From NCBI RefSeq assembly GCF_904830925.1, contig NZ_LR882967.1, forward strand, positions 3,554,106 through 3,618,105: DNA of 64,000 nucleotides, given 5' to 3'. Below are positions 8,917-23,236 of the stretch, one piece after another (within the stretch, counting starts at the first letter, position 1; every line of letters begins with the position of its first letter). The stretch is from Planktothrix pseudagardhii (GTDB taxonomy: Bacteria; Cyanobacteriota; Cyanobacteriia; Cyanobacteriales; Microcoleaceae). The position numbers were made by a program, and so were the translations under genes. A model generated the notes under the pieces. The model was not told the DNA's origin, did no database searches, and saw only the letters and a list, made by a program, of their open reading frames with translations.

Positions 8917-10017
8917 ATGCCACCTCGCTTCATCAACGATCGCTATGCTCTATCCCCCAACCCACGATCAGGTGGAATGGCAGATGTCTACCGCGCAAGA
9001 GACTACAACCAAGAAGAACGGCTAGTTGTGGTAAAAGAATTCAAAAATGGACAAATTGAAGCAGATTTTCTAGCCGAATCCTTCAGACGTGAAACCCTAG
9101 CTCTCCAAGAGTTAAAACACCCTAGAATTGTGGAACTCCTTGATTCTGGAAAGGATGAAACTACGGGGAATTATTTTCTGGTTCTGGAGTGGATGGAGAA
9201 AGATTTAACAACACTTTTAAAAGAATCTCCCCCGGAAGATTGGGATTCATTTTGGAAAGCAATAGCCTTACCCACATTGGAAGCTTTAGCATTTTCCCAT
9301 AATCGCGGAATAATACACCGGGATATTAAACCTAGCAATATTTTAGTAGGAAGTGACGGTAAACTTAAACTTGCTGACTTTGGCATATCTAAGCTTAAAA
9401 GATATTTGGAACCCAATATTACACTCAAAGACTTTGTATCGCGTACATTCACGCCGCCAGAATTTGATGATGGTTCCTATACTTACACCCGCGATGTTTT
9501 CAGTTTTGGTGTATTGGTTTTGAAGTGTTTAACTAATATTGAACTAACAGAACATAATAATATTCCCAGCGCTCTAAAAGCGTTTAATGCACCCTCTGAA
9601 ATCGTAGAAGTAATCGAGCGTGCTGTTTCCTTAGACCCCGCAGAGCGTCAGCATAATGCAGATGTATTGTTAGCTGAAATTAATGCTATTCAAAGAAAGA
9701 CAAAAACAGGAGAAATTAAAAAACGTCCTTGCTTTATTGAGCTTACACCAAGGTGCTTAGAACGACTTAGGAATGAATTGAAGATTTCTTCAGAAGTTGA
9801 GATCAAGAATCTTATCCTTGAAGATATCAATAATGAATCTGGTTGTGGCATTCGTCCCTTTAAATTTAAGGACGACACCAACGATGCTGCGTCCCGTGAA
9901 GATCACTACGAAATTTATGGTATTTCCTATCGATATCATATAAAGATAGATCAAAACCAACGACAGCACCTATCCCTCTTCTGTCACTCTCCGAAATCAA
10001 CAAGTAATAAAAAGTAG
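8917..10017 (+). CDS. Ser/Thr protein kinase domain protein; the reading frame runs into the IS inverted repeat at 9970 (3'-disrupted, putative mkoA 5' part)
   Basis: Hanks-type kinase motifs: Gly-loop/Lys (GGMADVYRA..VVVKEF), catalytic loop IIHRDIKPSNIL, DFGISK, and the APE-like TPPEF. The last 16 codons (LSLFCHSPKSTSNKK*) are encoded by the IS terminal repeat. Confidence 0.8.
   Translation: MPPRFINDRYALSPNPRSGGMADVYRARDYNQEERLVVVKEFKNGQIEADFLAESFRRETLALQELKHPRIVELLDSGKDETTGNYFLVLEWMEKDLTTLLKESPPEDWDSFWKAIALPTLEALAFSHNRGIIHRDIKPSNILVGSDGKLKLADFGISKLKRYLEPNITLKDFVSRTFTPPEFDDGSYTYTRDVFSFGVLVLKCLTNIELTEHNNIPSALKAFNAPSEIVEVIERAVSLDPAERQHNADVLLAEINAIQRKTKTGEIKKRPCFIELTPRCLERLRNELKISSEVEIKNLILEDINNESGCGIRPFKFKDDTNDAASREDHYEIYGISYRYHIKIDQNQRQHLSLFCHSPKSTSNKK
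9970..9994. repeat. left terminal inverted repeat of the IS701-like element
   Basis: Matches the reverse complement of 13067-13091 at 24 of 25 positions. Confidence 0.7.
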
Positions 10018-10019
10018 AG

Positions 10020-11255
10020 TTATCCATTGGGAAAATAAGATTGAAATTGATTAATATTCTCAATTAATTTATGAAAACCCACTAATAAATGGCGGTCGGG
10101 AAAAATATCTAGCCACGGGACAATCAACCACAATATAATAGTAGGCTGAATTATTAAACGCAGATTATTTAAAACATTTTTCCATCCCTCTTTGTGATTC
10201 CATTGTTGATGAGTTGAGCAATCGGTGGTGTTTTTTTTGCTCTCAGATTCTCGGGGACTGCCTTGACTTAAAGACCGGAAAACTTCGGAGTTGAAACTAA
10301 TCATTAAATACACACAGAAAATGATTTCCCACCATTTTTCTATATCGGGAAAATCCGTCAACCGATAATCAGTCCAACCCAGTTCTTGTTTACATTGTCG
10401 AAATCCATATTCCACCCATGTTCTTAACCCGTATAAATTACCTAATGTCTTTTTCATCTGGCTTCTCTTCTCTGTTAAATTTGTCATGACAAACGAAGTT
10501 GATGTTTCTGGCATCGTTTCTGGATCTGTGGTAATTTCCCAATAGGTTCTTGTACTTCTTTTCCCAAATATGATTTCTCTAATATATCTGGTTTCTGATT
10601 CTTGATTGCTAAAAATCCTCTCAAATTTACACCATTTGTTGGCTCTAACTTTCTGCTCGCTTGACATCCAGACTCCATGATTACTTCTTATTGCTAGTAC
10701 CCAAGGAATTTGAAATTGATCTAATGTACTGATAAACGAACTACTTTCACCATAAAGGCTATCTGCTAATACCAATTCAATCTGAAATCCCCAATCAACC
10801 AATTCTGTTAGAATTTCTGATGCGATTTCAATCTTAGTTTTGTAGACATCTCCTTCTTTTAATGTTCCTTTGGGTTTAAATACTCTAAACACTAAAGGAA
10901 AGGTTATATTTTTATAAACACCGTAAGCATTAACTGATACTATTCCCCGATCTGTTTTGCCCACACTTCCCAAGTATTGTCTAGCTATATAGTCGGTTTT
11001 TTTTCCCTTTCTCCTATCTCCTGTCTCATCAATTATTACTATAATCTTCTCTCCTTTCAATGCTTTTAGAGTTCGGGCTAATCTTCTTTCCTTTAATTCC
11101 CTTGCTGACCAAGGCGAATTGGCTAAGAAATGATGCAGTGATTGTGGCGACCTAATTCCTACTATTTTAGCAATTTCCGGTAAAGATTTTCTCGGAATTG
11201 GTGAGATAATTCCTAGATGTAAGTAGGGCTTGCTGAAAAAGTAACAGAAAAGCAA
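10020..11255 (-). CDS. IS701/IS4-type DDE transposase, C-terminal about 400 aa (N-terminus severed by the nested IS)
   Basis: The block LGIISPIPRKSLPEIAKIVGIRSPQSLHHFLANSPWS is typical of IS701-family transposases. A DDE-type core follows (IIVIIDETGDRRKG ... VLADSLYG). Confidence 0.7.
   Translation of the reverse strand: MLFCYFFSKPYLHLGIISPIPRKSLPEIAKIVGIRSPQSLHHFLANSPWSARELKERRLARTLKALKGEKIIVIIDETGDRRKGKKTDYIARQYLGSVGKTDRGIVSVNAYGVYKNITFPLVFRVFKPKGTLKEGDVYKTKIEIASEILTELVDWGFQIELVLADSLYGESSSFISTLDQFQIPWVLAIRSNHGVWMSSEQKVRANKWCKFERIFSNQESETRYIREIIFGKRSTRTYWEITTDPETMPETSTSFVMTNLTEKRSQMKKTLGNLYGLRTWVEYGFRQCKQELGWTDYRLTDFPDIEKWWEIIFCVYLMISFNSEVFRSLSQGSPRESESKKNTTDCSTHQQWNHKEGWKNVLNNLRLIIQPTIILWLIVPWLDIFPDRHLLVGFHKLIENINQFQSYFPNG
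11234..11250. repeat. terminal inverted repeat of the inner IS
   Basis: TAGGGCTTGCTGAAAAA; its reverse complement occurs at 12865-12881. Confidence 0.7.
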
Positions 11256-11267
11256 AAGAATGATTAA

Positions 11268-12770
11268 CTAGCAAATGGAGTCAGAAGGATAAATAAGTTT
11301 TTTTTGAGATAAGGAGTTAACAGATAAATTCTGGTAATCAATAACTCGAAAAAAGTAATTGAACAAAAAAATTGACCTAAAAATCCGTCTAAGAATCACA
11401 GAGAGATTCATGACTAAAAAAGTAATAGCAATTGCTGTTTCGGAAGTATGAGCTAGTTTATTCATAATCCGATTCAGGCTAAATCTTCTTTTCCCTTGGC
11501 CAAATTTCCCCTCAATGGAATTCCGAATTTTTTCATCCTCTAACGCCTGTTTCTTAGTAGCTTTACTAAGATTTGCTGACGGTCTCCCTAATGGGAGGCC
11601 ACTGATTCTAATTCCTCTGTCTTTACACCAAGCTCGGTTGTCTCTAGTCCGGTAAATTTTATCTACATGGACTGATTCAGGATAATGCCCCGTGTATTCT
11701 TTAAAAGCCTCTATTTGTGTTTTTAAATCACAGGATTCGTTAAAATTATCCCAACTAATCCGGTCAAGAAATACATATTCATCCAGACAACTCGCAGACA
11801 ATTTAGCACCAAATTCTACTGACGTTCCGGCTTTACCTCGCACAATCGGACGAATATGAGGTTGGCTCAAACTGACGATTCTATCGGAAATGCTCTGTTT
11901 GTTATTCTCATACATCCATTGCTGTTGACGGTAAACTTCTGATATTACTAATAAACTCTTATATTGCTTGTTATTTAAGCAATCTAGCGTTGCTCCATTG
12001 TCGATGAGTTGGTCTATATGTCCTAAGTTTCGTTTAATATATTGCAGTTGTTTTTTAACTGCTTTTCGTCTTTTTTGTCGGGAAGGTCGGCGTTGTTTGG
12101 CTACTTCTAGGTAGTCTTTTCTGGCTGTTTTTCGATAAGTTCTTGGTTTCTTTTCTGATTTATCCTGACGACTTTTATGCAAACTATCAATGATTTTTTC
12201 TGTCTGTTCTCTGGCTTTATTTAAAATTTTTAAGTCTGTTGGATATGTGATATCCGCAGGTGCACAAGTCGCATCAGCTATTAATTTTCCTCGGTTTTTC
12301 CTCTCACTTCCCTCTTCAGCTTCTGATTGATTTTCTGAGGCTGGCTCGGAACTCGCCTCTCGCATTCTTTTGACCATTAACCGATTAACTTTATTCACTA
12401 AATTTACATTGATTCTCGTCCGAAAGTGCACTAACATTGAGGCATCAAATGGAGCTTCGTTCCTGTATTCTGACAACCCGATAAAATACTGCAAGTAGGG
12501 ATTTTCTTTGATTTGTTCTACTGTTTCTCGGTCGCTTATCCCTAATTTTTCTTTAATGATTAAGGCTCCTAATGCCATTCTAAATGTTTTGGCGGGTGCT
12601 CCCATCACAGATGAGAATAATTCTGCATATTCCACTTCAAATTCTTCCCACGGTATCCATTGAGCCATGATTACCCAGCGATTCTCTTCTGAGAGTTTTC
12701 CCTCAAATGGCAGTTTGAACTCTTCGGGTGGTGTTTTCTGTTGTTCGTCTTTACGGTACATTTTCCCCAA
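11268..12770 (-). CDS. DDE transposase, IS5/IS1182-like (InsH-N/DUF772-type N-terminal domain)
   Basis: 500 aa. The N-terminal block FKLPFEGKLSEENRWVIMAQWIPWEEFEVEYAELF...TFRMALGALIIKEKLGISDRE is typical of IS5/IS1182 transposase N-termini. A basic KRR-rich linker and a C-terminal DDE region follow. Confidence 0.75.
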   Translation of the reverse strand: MGKMYRKDEQQKTPPEEFKLPFEGKLSEENRWVIMAQWIPWEEFEVEYAELFSSVMGAPAKTFRMALGALIIKEKLGISDRETVEQIKENPYLQYFIGLSEYRNEAPFDASMLVHFRTRINVNLVNKVNRLMVKRMREASSEPASENQSEAEEGSERKNRGKLIADATCAPADITYPTDLKILNKAREQTEKIIDSLHKSRQDKSEKKPRTYRKTARKDYLEVAKQRRPSRQKRRKAVKKQLQYIKRNLGHIDQLIDNGATLDCLNNKQYKSLLVISEVYRQQQWMYENNKQSISDRIVSLSQPHIRPIVRGKAGTSVEFGAKLSASCLDEYVFLDRISWDNFNESCDLKTQIEAFKEYTGHYPESVHVDKIYRTRDNRAWCKDRGIRISGLPLGRPSANLSKATKKQALEDEKIRNSIEGKFGQGKRRFSLNRIMNKLAHTSETAIAITFLVMNLSVILRRIFRSIFLFNYFFRVIDYQNLSVNSLSQKKLIYPSDSIC

Positions 12771-12864
12771 CTCCTGCCAGGTTTTTGCGCTATTTTACAC
12801 CCATCCCTTGCACCTGATTCATTTTTTCTTGTCTTCTCCTCCCGCCTGTTCTGGCTTTTCGCCT

Positions 12865-12881
12865 TTTTTCAGCAAGCCCTA
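12865..12881. repeat. terminal inverted repeat of the inner IS
   Basis: TTTTTCAGCAAGCCCTA, the reverse complement of 11234-11250. Confidence 0.7.
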
Positions 12882-12884
12882 AGT

Positions 12885-13014
12885 ATTTAAAACATTCGTA
12901 ACTTCTCACTTCTGGGAATAGGTCTTTATAACCTTGACAATATTCATCAATCACTGAAACTGTTGGTTGTGCATCTCGGGCTAAATGTTTGAGCATCTGT
13001 AATTCTACATCCAT
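12885..13014 (-). pseudogene. N-terminal 43 codons of the IS701-like transposase, separated from the rest by the nested IS
   Basis: MDVELQMLKHLARDAQPTVSVIDEYCQGYKDLFPEVRSYECFKY continues, after removal of 11234-12881 (and 2 bp), into LHLGIISPIPRKS at 11230. Confidence 0.6.
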
Positions 13015-13066
13015 TACCCTATCCCCCTTCTAGCTACCCATCTGGTTTATTTTCTAATTTTACTCC

Positions 13067-13091
13067 TCGGAGACTGACAGAAGAGGGATAG
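13067..13091. repeat. right terminal inverted repeat of the IS701-like element
   Basis: Reverse complement of 9970-9994 with one mismatch. Confidence 0.7.
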
Positions 13092-13096
13092 TTATT

Positions 13097-15487
13097 TTGA
13101 ATGCTTGGTCTACTTCTTACTGGCAATTAGAACAACGTCGAGAACGTTCTTGGATTCTTCCCTACGAGTTCAGATTTGGAAAGCCACGTAATTTATATGA
13201 AGCAGAAGATGTAATTCGGGATTTAGAGGATGCAGTTATAGAGCATGAAGATAACTTAAAAGAACAGGAAGATGAGAAAGAAAAGCAACGAATATTTCAA
13301 GTTTGGTGGGATATTCTTAGAGCGAAGGGTGATTGGGAAAAAAATAGAGAGAAACCGATTAAATACGAAGGCTGTACTCGTGATGGAAACCGCGTTACCT
13401 TTGAATTATCAGAACTTCCAGAAGATGATTTAGCTGGACAACCACGCCATGTGACAAACCCCAAAGGAATTAGCATCTTGGGGGGAGATATTGAGCAAGT
13501 TATCGGTGACAAATTGACTCTTTATATTAAATATGGAGAATCAGAAAGACTCCCACAATCTGGAGAATTACGTTTTGATACTCGTGCTGCTGAAGTTGCC
13601 CTAAATCGACAAAAAAATGCCCTGGATGCGATTAGATTTGATAGGGGAGTCCGTTCAGATATTCGCCAATTACTTGTCAATCCCCAAGAAGTTCGTATTC
13701 CTGATTTAGAAGTTGATTTACAATTTATTCAATCTCTGAATGAATCACAGGAACAAGTTGTCAAAGCGGCACTTTCTACAGAAGATTTTCTAATTGTTCA
13801 AGGGCCACCAGGAACAGGAAAGACAACATTTATTACAGAAGTTGTTCTGCAAATTCTTAATCAAAAACCTGAGACTAGAATTTTGCTGAGTTCACAAACT
13901 CATGTTGCACTAGATAACGCCTTAGAACGAATTAAAGCTAAAGATCCTCACTTAAAATTGTTGCGAATTGGCAACCATGAAAGGGTATCAGAAAATGTTC
14001 ATTCTCTGTTACTGGAAGAACAAATGGAACAATGGAGAGAGTCGGCGATCGCTAAAGGACAGGAATTTATTGATAATTGGTCAGCACAACGAGGTATTTC
14101 TGGGCATAACAGTGAAATAGCCACACTATTTCAAGAAATGAGAAATCTGGGAATAAAAATTGAAACTTTCAGGGAAGAAGTTAATGCCTGGAAACAGGAT
14201 TTAGATGAAATTCTAGCAATAAATTACGACATAGAAAATCCAGATTCATTGTTAGAAACTCATATTCCCAAAGATAAGCTAGAGGAATGTCAAAGTATTG
14301 AAGTGGAAATTAACATTCTACGTCAGCAGTTAAAAGAAGCACGACAGCAACAGAAAGAAAAAGCCAAGCGCTTAAAAGAATTAACTAGAAGTAGTATCAA
14401 TCAACTTTTGAGATTATCGGTTGAGGAGATACAAGAACAGATTAATCAACTCATTGATCAAAATAATTCAGATTCAAAAATGCTACAAAACTTGCTAAAA
14501 ATTCAAACAGAATGGTTTGAGCAGTTTGGTCGAAATGACAAATTCAATATACCTTTAATTAAGCGATCGCAAGTAATAGCTGGGACTTGTATCGGAATTC
14601 CTAGAGAGATTCAAGACATAGAATTTGACCTGTGTATTGTTGATGAAGCTTCAAAAGCTACGGCGACAGAAGTATTAGTTCCAATGGCGCGATCGCATCG
14701 CTGGATATTGGTTGGCGACCCTAAACAACTGCCACCCTTTAAAGATGAAGTTAGCAGAAATTCTGACTTTTTAGACGAATACGAACTGACTCAGGATGAT
14801 ATTCGAGAAACCCTATTTGATCGACTACTTAGGACACTCCCAGATGGGTGTCACAAGATGTTAACAATTCAACATCGGATGGTTGCACCAATTGGTGATC
14901 TGGTCAGTGAATGCTTTTATGAGGGTCAGCTAAAAAGTGCCAGGACTGATATCGATAAAGACCTGGCTAAAATATTACTAAAACCCGTTACTTGGTTAAC
15001 CACAACAAAACTTAAAAATTATCGTGAACAGTCTGTCAATTCTAGCTTTAACAATACCTGTGAAGTAAAAGTCATTGTTGAGTTTCTCAAGCAGCTAAAT
15101 CAAATAGCAGTACAAGCTGAAAAAAAATACAGCGTCGCTGTTTTAACCGGGTATGCAGCACAGCTAAAATTACTTAATCGTAGCCTTAATTCAGAATTAA
15201 AAAATTGGCAAGCATTAACAGTTGAGTGTAATACAGTAGATGCCTTCCAAGGACGCGAAGCTGATATTGCCGTGTATTCTGTAACTCGTTCTAACAGACA
15301 AGGTAAAGTGGGTTTTCTGCGTGATGCAGAACGATTAAATGTGGCTTTATCCAGAGGTAAAGTGGGTTTAGTAATTGTGGGAGATCATTACTTCTGTCGA
15401 ACTTCACAGGAGAATCCATTACACCGAGTTTTGGATTATATTGAACGTCACACTGAAAATTGCGCTTTAACCGAGCCTGGGTTATAA
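13097..15487 (+). CDS. Upf1/DNA2-like SF1 helicase (COG1112-type), 5'-truncated by the IS (putative mkoA 3' part)
   Basis: Walker A LIVQGPPGTGKTTF, Walker B/DEAS-type box LCIVDEASKA, and motifs VGDPKQLPP, TIQHRMVAPIG and AFQGREADIAVYS...LNVALSRGK, as in AAA_11/AAA_12 helicases. The first in-frame ATG is more than 300 codons in. The frame is open back to a TAA inside the IS repeat. Confidence 0.8.
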   Translation: MNAWSTSYWQLEQRRERSWILPYEFRFGKPRNLYEAEDVIRDLEDAVIEHEDNLKEQEDEKEKQRIFQVWWDILRAKGDWEKNREKPIKYEGCTRDGNRVTFELSELPEDDLAGQPRHVTNPKGISILGGDIEQVIGDKLTLYIKYGESERLPQSGELRFDTRAAEVALNRQKNALDAIRFDRGVRSDIRQLLVNPQEVRIPDLEVDLQFIQSLNESQEQVVKAALSTEDFLIVQGPPGTGKTTFITEVVLQILNQKPETRILLSSQTHVALDNALERIKAKDPHLKLLRIGNHERVSENVHSLLLEEQMEQWRESAIAKGQEFIDNWSAQRGISGHNSEIATLFQEMRNLGIKIETFREEVNAWKQDLDEILAINYDIENPDSLLETHIPKDKLEECQSIEVEINILRQQLKEARQQQKEKAKRLKELTRSSINQLLRLSVEEIQEQINQLIDQNNSDSKMLQNLLKIQTEWFEQFGRNDKFNIPLIKRSQVIAGTCIGIPREIQDIEFDLCIVDEASKATATEVLVPMARSHRWILVGDPKQLPPFKDEVSRNSDFLDEYELTQDDIRETLFDRLLRTLPDGCHKMLTIQHRMVAPIGDLVSECFYEGQLKSARTDIDKDLAKILLKPVTWLTTTKLKNYREQSVNSSFNNTCEVKVIVEFLKQLNQIAVQAEKKYSVAVLTGYAAQLKLLNRSLNSELKNWQALTVECNTVDAFQGREADIAVYSVTRSNRQGKVGFLRDAERLNVALSRGKVGLVIVGDHYFCRTSQENPLHRVLDYIERHTENCALTEPGL

Positions 15488-15569: not shown

Positions 15570-15779
15570 ATGAATAGCCACAAAGTAACATTAGAAATTT
15601 CGGAAACCCTTTTTGAGCAACTCTCTTTACTAGCTGACCTAAAAGAAGAATCAATAGAATATTTAGCAATTGAAATTATTGCTGCTAAATTACCTGGTTT
15701 AATTCAAAGAGAGAGTCAATTGAAGCAATTATTAGAAGCAATCAAACCTGATAGCATTCATAGTGAAATTGGGTTATAA
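15570..15779 (+). CDS. putative antitoxin (MazE/ribbon-helix-helix-like) of a MazF pair
   Basis: 69-aa acidic ORF ending 6 bp upstream of the MazF-like gene. Assigned on position and size only. Confidence 0.45.
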   Translation: MNSHKVTLEISETLFEQLSLLADLKEESIEYLAIEIIAAKLPGLIQRESQLKQLLEAIKPDSIHSEIGL

Positions 15780-15785
15780 TAATAT

Positions 15786-16148
15786 ATGAATTCTGATAAT
15801 CCTCAGTTGTATATTCCTCGTCAAGGTGATATCATTTGGATTGACTTTATTCCGCAAATCGGCAGAGAACAGGCAGGTCGTCGTCCAGCTATTGTTATCT
15901 CAAAAACAACATATAATCGCCGAGTTGGACTAGCTTTAGTCTGTCCAATTACTAGCCGAGTAAAAGGTTATCCTTTTGAAGTAGCAATTCCAGAAGGATT
16001 AGCAGTATCAGGAGTTGTTTTAGCCGATCAAATTAAATCCTTTGATTGGCAAGCAAGGCAAGCAGAGTTTGCTTGTAAAATGCCTCCAGAAGTCCTAATT
16101 GAAGTAGTTGCTAAATTAATGAACCTATTACCCGAAATAGAGATTTAG
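15786..16148 (+). CDS. mazF: MazF/PemK-family endoribonuclease toxin
   Basis: 120 aa. GDIIWIDFIPQIGREQAGRRPAIVIS ... LALVCPITSRVKGYPFEV ... VVLADQIKSFDWQARQA matches the PemK/MazF signature. Confidence 0.8.
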   Translation: MNSDNPQLYIPRQGDIIWIDFIPQIGREQAGRRPAIVISKTTYNRRVGLALVCPITSRVKGYPFEVAIPEGLAVSGVVLADQIKSFDWQARQAEFACKMPPEVLIEVVAKLMNLLPEIEI

Positions 16149-16158
16149 TTAAATAAAT

Positions 16159-17700
16159 ATGAAGTTAGAAAATCTCGATTTTTCTCCAGAAGAACTGCGT
16201 CGCTACAATAATCGTACAGGCTTCGATTTAGTGAGTTGTAAACAAGTCGGTTTACCTGTTTATAAAATTACTGTTCAAGCTCTAACTCAACTGCATAAAC
16301 CAATTCCACCAATAGAAGAATATGTCTTGAAATCGATTAATGCTGGTTTATCCTCTGAAACGGATATTGCTGGATTTCTTGGCATTGAATTGCCTATTGT
16401 CAGGGATGCAATGATCAATTTAAGGATGAGTGAGGATATAGACCTCATAGCTCCTGATGGCTCTCAGATACAGGTTTGGAAGTTGACGAAAAAAGGTGAA
16501 GGAACACTCCGCGAGGCTAAAATTATTGTTCCAGAAGAGCGAACATTTGATATCAATTTTGATGGACTTTTACGGTATCCTCGTTGGTACGGAAAGTTAG
16601 AGTCACGTTTACTTAAGCAAAAAGATTTGCGTGATCAAGACATTATAGAAATTGACCCCTTTCCGAAAAAGTCACCAGAAATTTCCGATCTTAAACTCAA
16701 AGATGTAGACAAAATTATTCGCCAGATTGATGGAGCCAGCAAAGCCAGAGTTAAGCAAGAGCGAGACCTTTTAGCCTTGAAAGCTATTGAGCGCAGGTCG
16801 ATATTTTTTCAACCGGCTTTGATGCTAATTTATAAGGCGAAAGATAGTGATAATATTCAGGTATCTTTTGCGATTGATGATGTTATTTCTAATGATCATG
16901 AAGAAATTTTTGATCGTACTAATGGAATCAAAAAACTTCAGATATTAGAAAACCTAAAAGAGAGCGCACCCCGAAAGTTAGCTGAAGCAGTTTTAGGATA
17001 TGAATTTGTTGCTCAAGCTCCTTTACAAGAAATTGAAGCGATTAAGGAAAAAGTTTTTGCTGCTCAAGCTCAAATAGAAGAAAAAATACAAACAACTCAA
17101 AATACTCTTGAACAAACTGAAGATGATCAGGAAAAACTCATTCTTGATCAAAAGCTTCAAGAAGCACAACAGCAAATAAAAGAACTTCAAGCTCAACTTG
17201 ATTCTATTCTAGCTTCAGTTCCGATGCGATGGCTAGAAATGTACGAACACCGTCCTATCCTCGAACAAGCACTTAAAGAGAGTCAAAAACGTTTAATGAT
17301 TATCTCTCCTTGGATTCGAGCAAGTTCTGTGGATAAAAAGTTTATTCAACAGTTTGAAAATCTTCTCAAACGGGGAGTACAAGTTTTGATTGGGTACGGT
17401 TTAGGAGAAAACGATGATAAAAATTCAAAATCTGATATTCAAGCTGAGAAAAATCTTGAAAAATTAGCAAATCAGTACCAAGGTAATTTTATCCTTAAAC
17501 GTCTTGGAGATACCCACGCAAAAATCCTCATATCTGATGGAAAATTTGCTGTTACAACAAGTTTTAATTGGCTTTCTTTTAAGGGCGATCGCGATCGCAC
17601 CTTTCGAGATGAACGGGGAACACTTGTATCTGACCCCCAAAAAATTGATGAACTTTTTGATAGCTATAGATCTCGAATAATTAATACAAAATCTACTTGA
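16159..17700 (+). CDS. PLD-superfamily (single HKD) nuclease-domain protein with a long N-terminal region and central coiled coil (putative mkoB)
   Basis: The C-terminal domain LMIISPWIRASSVDKKFIQQFENLLKRGVQVLIGYG ... GDTHAKILISDGKFAVTTSFNWLS carries one HxK(x4)D motif, as in Nuc/Zucchini-type PLD nucleases. The N-terminal roughly 330 aa show no motif I recognise. Confidence 0.7.
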   Translation: MKLENLDFSPEELRRYNNRTGFDLVSCKQVGLPVYKITVQALTQLHKPIPPIEEYVLKSINAGLSSETDIAGFLGIELPIVRDAMINLRMSEDIDLIAPDGSQIQVWKLTKKGEGTLREAKIIVPEERTFDINFDGLLRYPRWYGKLESRLLKQKDLRDQDIIEIDPFPKKSPEISDLKLKDVDKIIRQIDGASKARVKQERDLLALKAIERRSIFFQPALMLIYKAKDSDNIQVSFAIDDVISNDHEEIFDRTNGIKKLQILENLKESAPRKLAEAVLGYEFVAQAPLQEIEAIKEKVFAAQAQIEEKIQTTQNTLEQTEDDQEKLILDQKLQEAQQQIKELQAQLDSILASVPMRWLEMYEHRPILEQALKESQKRLMIISPWIRASSVDKKFIQQFENLLKRGVQVLIGYGLGENDDKNSKSDIQAEKNLEKLANQYQGNFILKRLGDTHAKILISDGKFAVTTSFNWLSFKGDRDRTFRDERGTLVSDPQKIDELFDSYRSRIINTKST

Positions 17701-21877: not shown

Positions 21878-23236
21878 ATGGAACTTGATTTATCTCGCTT
21901 TTTTAAAGCTTCTAATCCGGCTGAAACCCTCGATGTTGAACGTCCAGAAGATCAAAAATATTATATTGATTTTTCTCCAGCACGAGGCGGTAAGTGCATG
22001 GAACAAATTGCACGAACAATTACGCGGTTATCCCCTGATCGCCCCACCTGCCAACTGTTTACCGGGCCAGTAGGTTCAGGGAAATCAACGGAATTATTGA
22101 GGTTGAAAGCTCAACTCCAAAAAGAAGGATTCCATGTCGTTTATTTTGAATCGAGTAAAGATTTAGATATGGGGGATGTGGATATTACCGATATTTTATT
22201 AGCGATCGCTCGTCAAGTGAGTGAAAGTATTGAAAGCTTGAAAATTAAATTACAACCGAAAGGATTTAAAAGTTTATTAAGTGGAGTCATTAATGTTTTA
22301 AATACAGAAATTGACTTAAAAGCAGATATTAACGTCCCCGGTCTGGGAACATTGGCTGCTAACACAGAAGGAGAATTTTCCCTCTCTACAGGGATTGGAA
22401 ATATTACGGCTAAGACGAAAGATAGTCGAGATTTACGGTCTTTATTACGTCAATATTTAGAACCCCGAACCAATAATATTTTAGAGGCTATCAATAAAGA
22501 ATTATTGGAACCTTCCATCCAACAATTAAAACAGATGGGAAAACAAGGTTTAGTGGTGATTATTGATAATTTAGATCGGATTAGTTATAGCCCCAATAGT
22601 ACGGGAAGATTTCAACCCGAATATTTATTTATTGATCGCGGTGAACAACTCAATAAACTCAATTGTCATGTAGTTTATACCATTCCTTTAGGTTTGATTT
22701 TTTCTAATGATTTAGGACAACTGATGAATCGTTTTGGGAATGACCCAAAAACCTTACCGATGGTGACGGTAAAATTTGAAGATGGCGCACCTTGTCAAGA
22801 GGGAATTGAATTGTTAAGACAAATGGTAATGGCAAGAGCATTTCCAGGTCTGGCTGCGAAAGATTATCCAGCTTTAATTGATACAATTTTTGATAGTCCT
22901 GAAACCTTAGATCGTCTTTGTACCATTAGTGGCGGTCATGTTCGGAGTTTATTAATTTTGTTATATAGCTGTTTACAAAAAGAAGATCCCCCTTTAACAA
23001 GAGAATCCTTAGAAGAGGTAATTCTACAACGTCGTCATCAATTAACCTTAGCCATTGAAGCTGAAGAATGGCAAATGTTACGCCAAGTAGCAGCGACTAA
23101 AAAGTTGAGTGGTCAAATTGAATATCAAACCCTAATCAGAAGTTTATGGGTTTTTGAATATAATCATGCTCAACATTTTTGGTATGATATTAACCCGATA
23201 TTGACGGAAGCTAAGGAGTTTGGATTAGGCATTTAG
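21878..23236 (+). CDS. P-loop NTPase (AAA-like ATPase), function unknown
   Basis: 452 aa with Walker A LFTGPVGSGKSTEL and Walker B LVVIIDNLDRI. It has no partner genes. Confidence 0.55.
   Translation: MELDLSRFFKASNPAETLDVERPEDQKYYIDFSPARGGKCMEQIARTITRLSPDRPTCQLFTGPVGSGKSTELLRLKAQLQKEGFHVVYFESSKDLDMGDVDITDILLAIARQVSESIESLKIKLQPKGFKSLLSGVINVLNTEIDLKADINVPGLGTLAANTEGEFSLSTGIGNITAKTKDSRDLRSLLRQYLEPRTNNILEAINKELLEPSIQQLKQMGKQGLVVIIDNLDRISYSPNSTGRFQPEYLFIDRGEQLNKLNCHVVYTIPLGLIFSNDLGQLMNRFGNDPKTLPMVTVKFEDGAPCQEGIELLRQMVMARAFPGLAAKDYPALIDTIFDSPETLDRLCTISGGHVRSLLILLYSCLQKEDPPLTRESLEEVILQRRHQLTLAIEAEEWQMLRQVAATKKLSGQIEYQTLIRSLWVFEYNHAQHFWYDINPILTEAKEFGLGI

Follow-up and report, generated by a model that had tools for sequence, protein, structure and literature searches.

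A nested insertion of two cyanobacterial insertion sequences within mkoA of a predicted type I Mokosh system in Planktothrix pseudagardhii

Type I Mokosh systems, which act against phages, combine a helicase gene carrying an added Ser/Thr kinase domain with a separate gene for a PLD nuclease (MkoA and MkoB; Millman et al. 2022, bioRxiv 10.1101/2022.05.11.491447). In a 64,000-nucleotide stretch of the Planktothrix pseudagardhii genome (contig NZ_LR882967.1, positions 3,554,106 to 3,618,105; hereafter the window), the mkoA gene of such a predicted system is interrupted by an insertion sequence (IS) that itself carries a second one. The named elements closest to the outer IS are ISNpu6 of Nostoc punctiforme and IS701, which was defined in Tolypothrix/Calothrix PCC 7601. 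The inner IS resembles ISMae6, an IS5-family element of Microcystis aeruginosa with a length of 1686 bp and 8 copies in strain NIES-843 (PMC2779907). Both types are listed for lineage 3 in the IS catalogue of Planktothrix, as group 15 (IS701, 1335-bp gene, 11-13 copies in lineage 3) and group 18 (IS5, ISMae6-like, 1494-bp gene; PMC9366434).

Seen against these descriptions, the locus is a genuine and ordinary nested IS insertion, with nothing categorically new: both elements are new isoforms of catalogued cyanobacterial IS types, and together they probably disable a known defence gene. Once rejoined, the gene encodes a Ser/Thr kinase and a COG1112/Upf1-like helicase with the PLD-nuclease gene mkoB downstream, as in type I Mokosh. 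In contrast to the described system, mkoA is split in the window by 3.1 kb of IS DNA, and a MazE-like/PemK pair lies between mkoA and mkoB.

The interrupted gene and the nested structure

Joining positions 8917-9972 to 13091-15487 yielded an open reading frame (ORF) of 1150 aa (Table 1). Planktothrix sp. FACHB-1365 encodes an uninterrupted protein of the same length (P0121) that shares 93% identity with the rejoined MkoA; the junction peptide ...QRQHLVILNAWSTSY and the junction stretch ...IDQNQRQHLVILNAWSTSY... are identical in both proteins. The intact FACHB-1365 protein matched the PADLOC MkoA model PDLC03920 with 905.6 bits (residues 4-1145), both window fragments matched the same model, and over a hundred further single-chain homologues were found in a database search. 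At the nucleotide level, the 5' part of mkoA shares 92% ungapped identity with the FACHB-1365 orthologue (flank identity 92-94%), and the order GH116, 131-aa ORF, mkoA, 69-aa ORF and PemK is the same in the window and in FACHB-1365 (L089), as fits a chromosomal locus of a Planktothrix-like cyanobacterium. That is, by sequence comparison the interrupted gene is the mkoA of a predicted type I Mokosh system, in line with the original prediction that a candidate defence gene had been hit.

The outer element entered between codons 352 and 353 of mkoA. Three uninterrupted orthologues (L089, L113 and L114) read CAC/TAC-CTAG-TT/TG at this site, whereas the window reads CAC-CTA[TCCC...GGGA]TAG-TT (square brackets enclose the element), which argues for duplication of the TA within a CTAG target. 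These empty sites fix the net gain of the window copy as the IS plus TA. Judged by this comparison, the outer element has a 2-bp TA target duplication at CTAG, where none had been seen before.

The outer transposase gene is now broken into ORFs of 74 and 411 aa. Deleting 11226-12885 restored one continuous minus-strand frame for an IS701 transposase of 444 aa, slightly shorter than the roughly 446 aa first estimated, and bore out the claim that the inner insertion disrupts this ORF. Deletion of 11224-12883 gives the same string and joins ...RSYECFKY to LHLGIISPIPRKS in a single open frame, just as had been proposed for removal of the inner element plus 2 bp. The inner insertion site, TACTTA, corresponds to codons 44-46 of the transposase gene and occurs once in each of six intact copies of the outer type from Planktothrix sp. 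PCC 11201 (L081-L085 and L087), which provide the inner empty site. From these alignments we read the inner element as having GGG...CCC ends and a 6-bp TAAGTA duplication at a TAnnTA target.

Table 1. Positions of the nested elements, their target duplications and the Mokosh genes in the window.
Feature	Position	Strand	Evidence or remark
mkoA 5' part (Ser/Thr kinase and linker, codons 1-352)	8917-9972	+	Pfam Pkinase 1.5e-35; PDLC03920 251.6 bits
Left TA of outer target duplication	9971-9972	.	Within host CTAG; window reads CTA[TCCC
Outer IS701-family element with passenger	9973-13088	-	3116 bp; own DNA 9973-11219/11225 and 12880/12886-13088, 1456 bp
Outer transposase gene, 3' part, residues 44-444	10023-11225	-	tblastn 100% identity; Pfam DDE_5 and DDE_Tnp_1
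TAAGTA, inner target duplication, copy 1	11220-11225	.	Empty site: one TACTTA (six intact copies of the outer type)
Inner IS5-family (ISMae6-like) element	11226-12879	-	1654 bp; perfect 15-nt repeats GGGCTTGCTGAAAAA; NF033578, Pfam DDE_Tnp_1_2 and DUF772
Inner transposase gene, intact	11268-12770	-	500 aa from TTG, 497 aa from first ATG
TAAGTA, inner target duplication, copy 2	12880-12885	.	Direct-repeat comparison
Outer transposase gene, 5' part, residues 1-43	12886-13014	-	ATG start at 13014
Right TA of outer target duplication	13089-13090	.	Empty-site comparison with orthologues
mkoA 3' part (Upf1-like SF1 helicase, AAA_11 and AAA_12)	13091-15487	+	PADLOC MkoA 639 bits
mkoB, PLD-family nuclease (context, not IS)	16159-17700	+	PADLOC MkoB PDLC03922 299.4 bits; Pfam PLDc_2

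With the IS701 model NF033540, the rejoined 444-aa transposase scored 246.8 bits (cut-off 150; Pfam DDE_5, 5.2e-34), in agreement with the type first assigned. Its identity to P0001, which is annotated as an IS701-family transposase in Planktothrix sp. PCC 11201, is 94%; eight copies encoding P0001 were fetched from that strain. In the seven copies with both ends within the fetched DNA, the matched ends always spanned 1456 bp with TA on either flank, reading TA[TCCC...GGGA]TA and, in one copy, TA[ACCC...GGGT]TA. Without its passenger, the window copy also measures 1456 bp and shares 94.4% nucleotide identity with these copies; a single ORF, IS701-related ends and this length place it within the pattern of the IS701 family (about 1.4-1.55 kb). 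The inner element had been called IS5/IS1182-like, and the first half of this label stood: its transposase matched the IS5 model NF033578 with 480 bits (cut-off 275) over profile positions 3-418 of 419. IS1182 was rejected at only 61.6 bits (NF033551, cut-off 270), and so was ISNCY at 120 bits (NF033593, cut-off 325), a score that reflects homology and not membership.

History of the insertions and alternative explanations

Two successive insertions by DDE transposases very probably account for the nested structure. In a first step, an IS701-family element (1456 bp, TCCC...GGGA) would have entered a CTAG in mkoA, duplicating its central TA. In a second step, an ISMae6-like IS5-family element (1654 bp, GGG...CCC) would have entered TACTTA of the IS701 transposase gene, with duplication of 6 bp. 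Both sets of ends, both duplications, both empty sites and the exact restoration of both frames speak for this history, and the nesting originally predicted thus holds as two complete insertions, each with its own duplication and empty site. We infer that the outer element came first and the inner second. Both insertions appear to be recent, because neither the two elements nor mkoA carry any other lesion. Presumably the outer element is immobile on its own and movable by the transposase of another copy, while the inner element seems to be still active, given its undamaged gene, repeats and duplication.

In an alternative order of events, the IS5 element inserted into an IS701 copy elsewhere, and the pre-formed 3.1-kb composite then moved into mkoA with transposase provided in trans by a different IS701 copy. 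The intact outer ends (21/22) and the clean TA duplication are compatible with such a transfer, and related Planktothrix genomes with 8-13 copies offer a possible transposase source (PMC9366434). The final structure is the same under either order and the sequence cannot choose between them. However, the composite requires one step more, and neither the window nor the metagenome collection yielded a second copy of the nested junction; we consider it very unlikely.

We give next to no credence to the anatomy first drawn for the two elements, in which 17-nt inner repeats (TAGGGCTTGCTGAAAAA) were flanked by a 2-bp AG duplication, and 25-nt outer repeats beginning with CTATCCC by none. The strings themselves are present. 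The 17-nt repeat is perfect, with arms at 11224-11240 and 12865-12881 (the right arm had been placed correctly, the left one at 11234-11250), and the 25-nt repeat was found where it had been reported (9970-9994 and 13067-13091), with 24/25 matching positions and no such pair in 100 shuffles. When the target is TAnnTA, ends that carry TA plus a duplication of 2 bp spell exactly what a 6-bp duplication spells, which is why the AG parse looked valid. The relatives of the inner element argue against it. Motif GGGnTTGCTGAAAAA was present at both ends in all 80 related loci that were fetched, and flanks were compared in the 50 complete copies. A perfect 6-bp direct repeat flanked 33 of these and a 7-bp repeat another three, with the consensus TAnnTA and TAATTA, TAAGTA and TACTTA as the commonest forms; the window element shows the same combination of ends and 6-bp duplication, which is common across the clade. 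Four perfect 6-bp repeats depart from this pattern (TAATTC in L006, GAATTA in L043 and L045, TACGCA in L064). Neither these non-TA repeats nor the 7-bp ones can be read as IS ends, and therefore all six positions are target DNA, not IS DNA. Of the 17 nt in the arm, 15 then form the IS end, GGGCTTGCTGAAAAA, and the remaining TA belongs to the TAAGTA duplication of 6 bp. In the outer element, the outermost C and G counted into the 25-nt repeat belong to the host and already stand in the three empty sites (CTAG), so that the repeat proper, TCCCTCTTCTGTCA(C/G)TCTCCGA, comprises 22 nt with 21 matches. Excising 9970-13091 instead brings in a stop codon two codons downstream, and the 1150-aa frame is lost.

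Misassembly, with IS copies misjoined and the nesting absent from the cell, hardly comes into question: IS copies are a classic source of such errors and only assembled sequence stands behind the nesting here, but in a chimera one would not expect complete inverted repeats flanked, in both elements, by exact target duplications, or that the frames of the 444-aa transposase and the 1150-aa MkoA can both be restored to the base.

Some points nevertheless weigh against two insertions with the borders and effect given here. The nesting was read from the assembled sequence of one copy. Its junction, CCTAGATGTAAGTAGGGCTTGCTG, had no match in metagenome contigs, and the exact inner transposase (500 aa or 497 aa) was unmatched in the assembly collection. 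A TA duplication and a blunt integration of ATCCC...GGGAT between the T and the A leave one and the same sequence, and some IS701 relatives fit CCC...GGG ends with a 4-bp duplication better. The loss of Mokosh function, finally, is inferred.

Relatives of the two elements and the IS701 boundary

For IS701, ISfinder lists target duplications of 4 bp, and for the ISAba11 group, of 5 bp. For ISDge5, a duplication of 5 bp has been described (PMC8533066). Within the IS701 clade, the 4-bp type of reading suits IS701 itself (TTAA[CCC...GGG]TTAA), a copy of Nostoc sp. NIES-3756 and a 174-bp derivative (both CTAA[CCC...GGG]CTAA) as well as a metagenomic copy (TTAT), while many other copies fit nothing but nTA(T)[CCC...GGG](A)TAn. 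Since some relatives are better read as 4-bp, the one-base placement of the outer boundary is a convention. For the window copy, a strict 4-bp duplication with CCC...GGG ends was ruled out by the empty sites: it differs from IS701 and two Nostoc relatives, which are read as 4-bp, in its net 2-bp TA gain and its T...A terminal bases. TA at -3/-2 and +2/+3 is invariant among all complete copies of the clade with both ends. The base beside CCC/GGG differs between copies (L082, L090, L092, L052 and L093-L112), as T..A, A..T, A..C or T..T, and thus some copies look 4-bp and others 2-bp. This variation raises the rather doubtful idea that the IS701 clade has no fixed 4-bp duplication and that its transposase makes its cut one base beyond the conserved end; the enzyme might then take a base of the donor flank along into the new site. 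To our knowledge, cutting of this kind has not been described for IS701.

The outer element shares with the clade of ISNpu6, IS701 and P0001 a single 444-aa DDE transposase (NF033540, DDE_5), the 1456-bp length, TA on both flanks and the end motif CCCTnTTnTGTCACTCT, the last of which it has in common with IS701 of Tolypothrix PCC 7601. Among plasmid records, P0001 showed 72% identity to the product of a gene with the RefSeq name 'IS701-like element ISNpu6 family transposase', and 55% identity to the copies of IS701 in Tolypothrix sp. PCC 7601. Unlike IS701 and ISNpu6, the window copy has a split gene, which should make it non-autonomous. The exact outer-end motif was absent from the first 80 loci, which hold the relatives of the inner element, and a looser search recovered only the 174-bp derivative. 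The latter lies in a Nostoc metagenome-assembled genome (MAG; L052, 2414-2587) and resembles a miniature inverted-repeat transposable element, with IS701-type ends CCCTGTTTTGTCACTC...GACAAAAGAGGG and CTAA direct repeats on its flanks.

P0042, a truncated relative of 378 aa, was considered as a second nested case and dismissed, as no inner IS ends lie inside that element. IS701-like copies were also observed head-to-tail with 4-6 nt between their ends (L104, 322-327; L106, 1448-1453; L098, 30-37), the abutted ends reading GGG-ATAA-CCC and GGG-TTATAG-CCC. Such copies resemble IS dimers or circle junctions, but could alternatively be effects of metagenome assembly.

The inner element shares about 70% protein identity with a plasmid gene named 'IS5-like element ISMae6 family transposase' in RefSeq and is close to ISMae6 in length (1654 versus 1686 bp). 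With merely 70% identity, it would merit an IS name of its own. Its best relatives reached 83-87% identity and were found in an uncultured bacterium MAG and among deleted copies in P. paucivesiculata; the element of locus L001 is 83% identical at the nucleotide level. Planktothrix paucivesiculata PCC 9631 harbours several internally deleted derivatives of the inner type (L058 and L059, 3886-5117; also L057 and L077). Those in L058 and L059 measure 1232 bp and their transposase is 87% identical to that of the window.

Among the 50 complete inner-type copies, 14 had non-matching flanks, mostly still TAnnTA-like, which suggests recombination between IS copies. In Nostoc sp. C117 (L009, 3856-7319), two inner-type copies stand back to back with one common TAATTA between them.

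Consequences for the Mokosh locus

The mkoA 5' frame continues into the IS and ends at 10017. The split gene hence encodes a kinase fragment of 366 aa, the last 14 of which come from the IS, and a helicase fragment of 796 aa. The IS end on the side of the helicase half yielded no outward promoter, and promoter-like matches there were fewer than in shuffles. Given the split protein and no promoter-like site facing the helicase fragment, MkoA, and with it the Mokosh defence, is probably inactivated in the window strain. That the knock-out is no accident and may have been favoured by selection, for instance because the defence was costly, is a separate thought to which we attach as little weight as to the altered cutting by IS701 transposases.

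A truncated outer ORF of 411 aa (10020-11255, minus strand) starts at a TTG within the inner IS end. As both transposase genes lie on the minus strand, read-through from the inner element could express the outer transposase minus its first 43 residues.

Downstream of mkoA, positions 15570-16148 carry the MazE-like 69-aa ORF and the PemK/MazF toxin gene (PF02452, 7.5e-27). They are followed by mkoB, whose 513-aa product contains an HxK motif (...THAKILISD...). About 4 kb downstream of the Mokosh locus, past polA, a 452-aa KAP/STAND-like P-loop NTPase is encoded (21878-23236; nSTAND_NTPase5, AAA_22 and KAP_NTPase) with a weak match to PADLOC PDC-S20. Further copies or fragments of either IS were not found within the window, the remainder of which consists of housekeeping genes.

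The exact ends, duplications and target preferences reported here, CTAG/nTAn for the IS701-like and TAnnTA for the ISMae6-like element, are mainly of value for annotation. Palindromic targets such as CTAG and TAnnTA make target bases mimic the inverted repeat, a general trap when an IS is read from a single copy. The disabling of defence genes by IS bears on how fast the defence repertoire turns over in bloom-forming cyanobacteria, a question to which a single case adds little. For the source strain, the two adjacent 'genes', one for a kinase of 366 aa and one for a helicase of 796 aa, are the halves of one mkoA, and its Mokosh system is probably dead.

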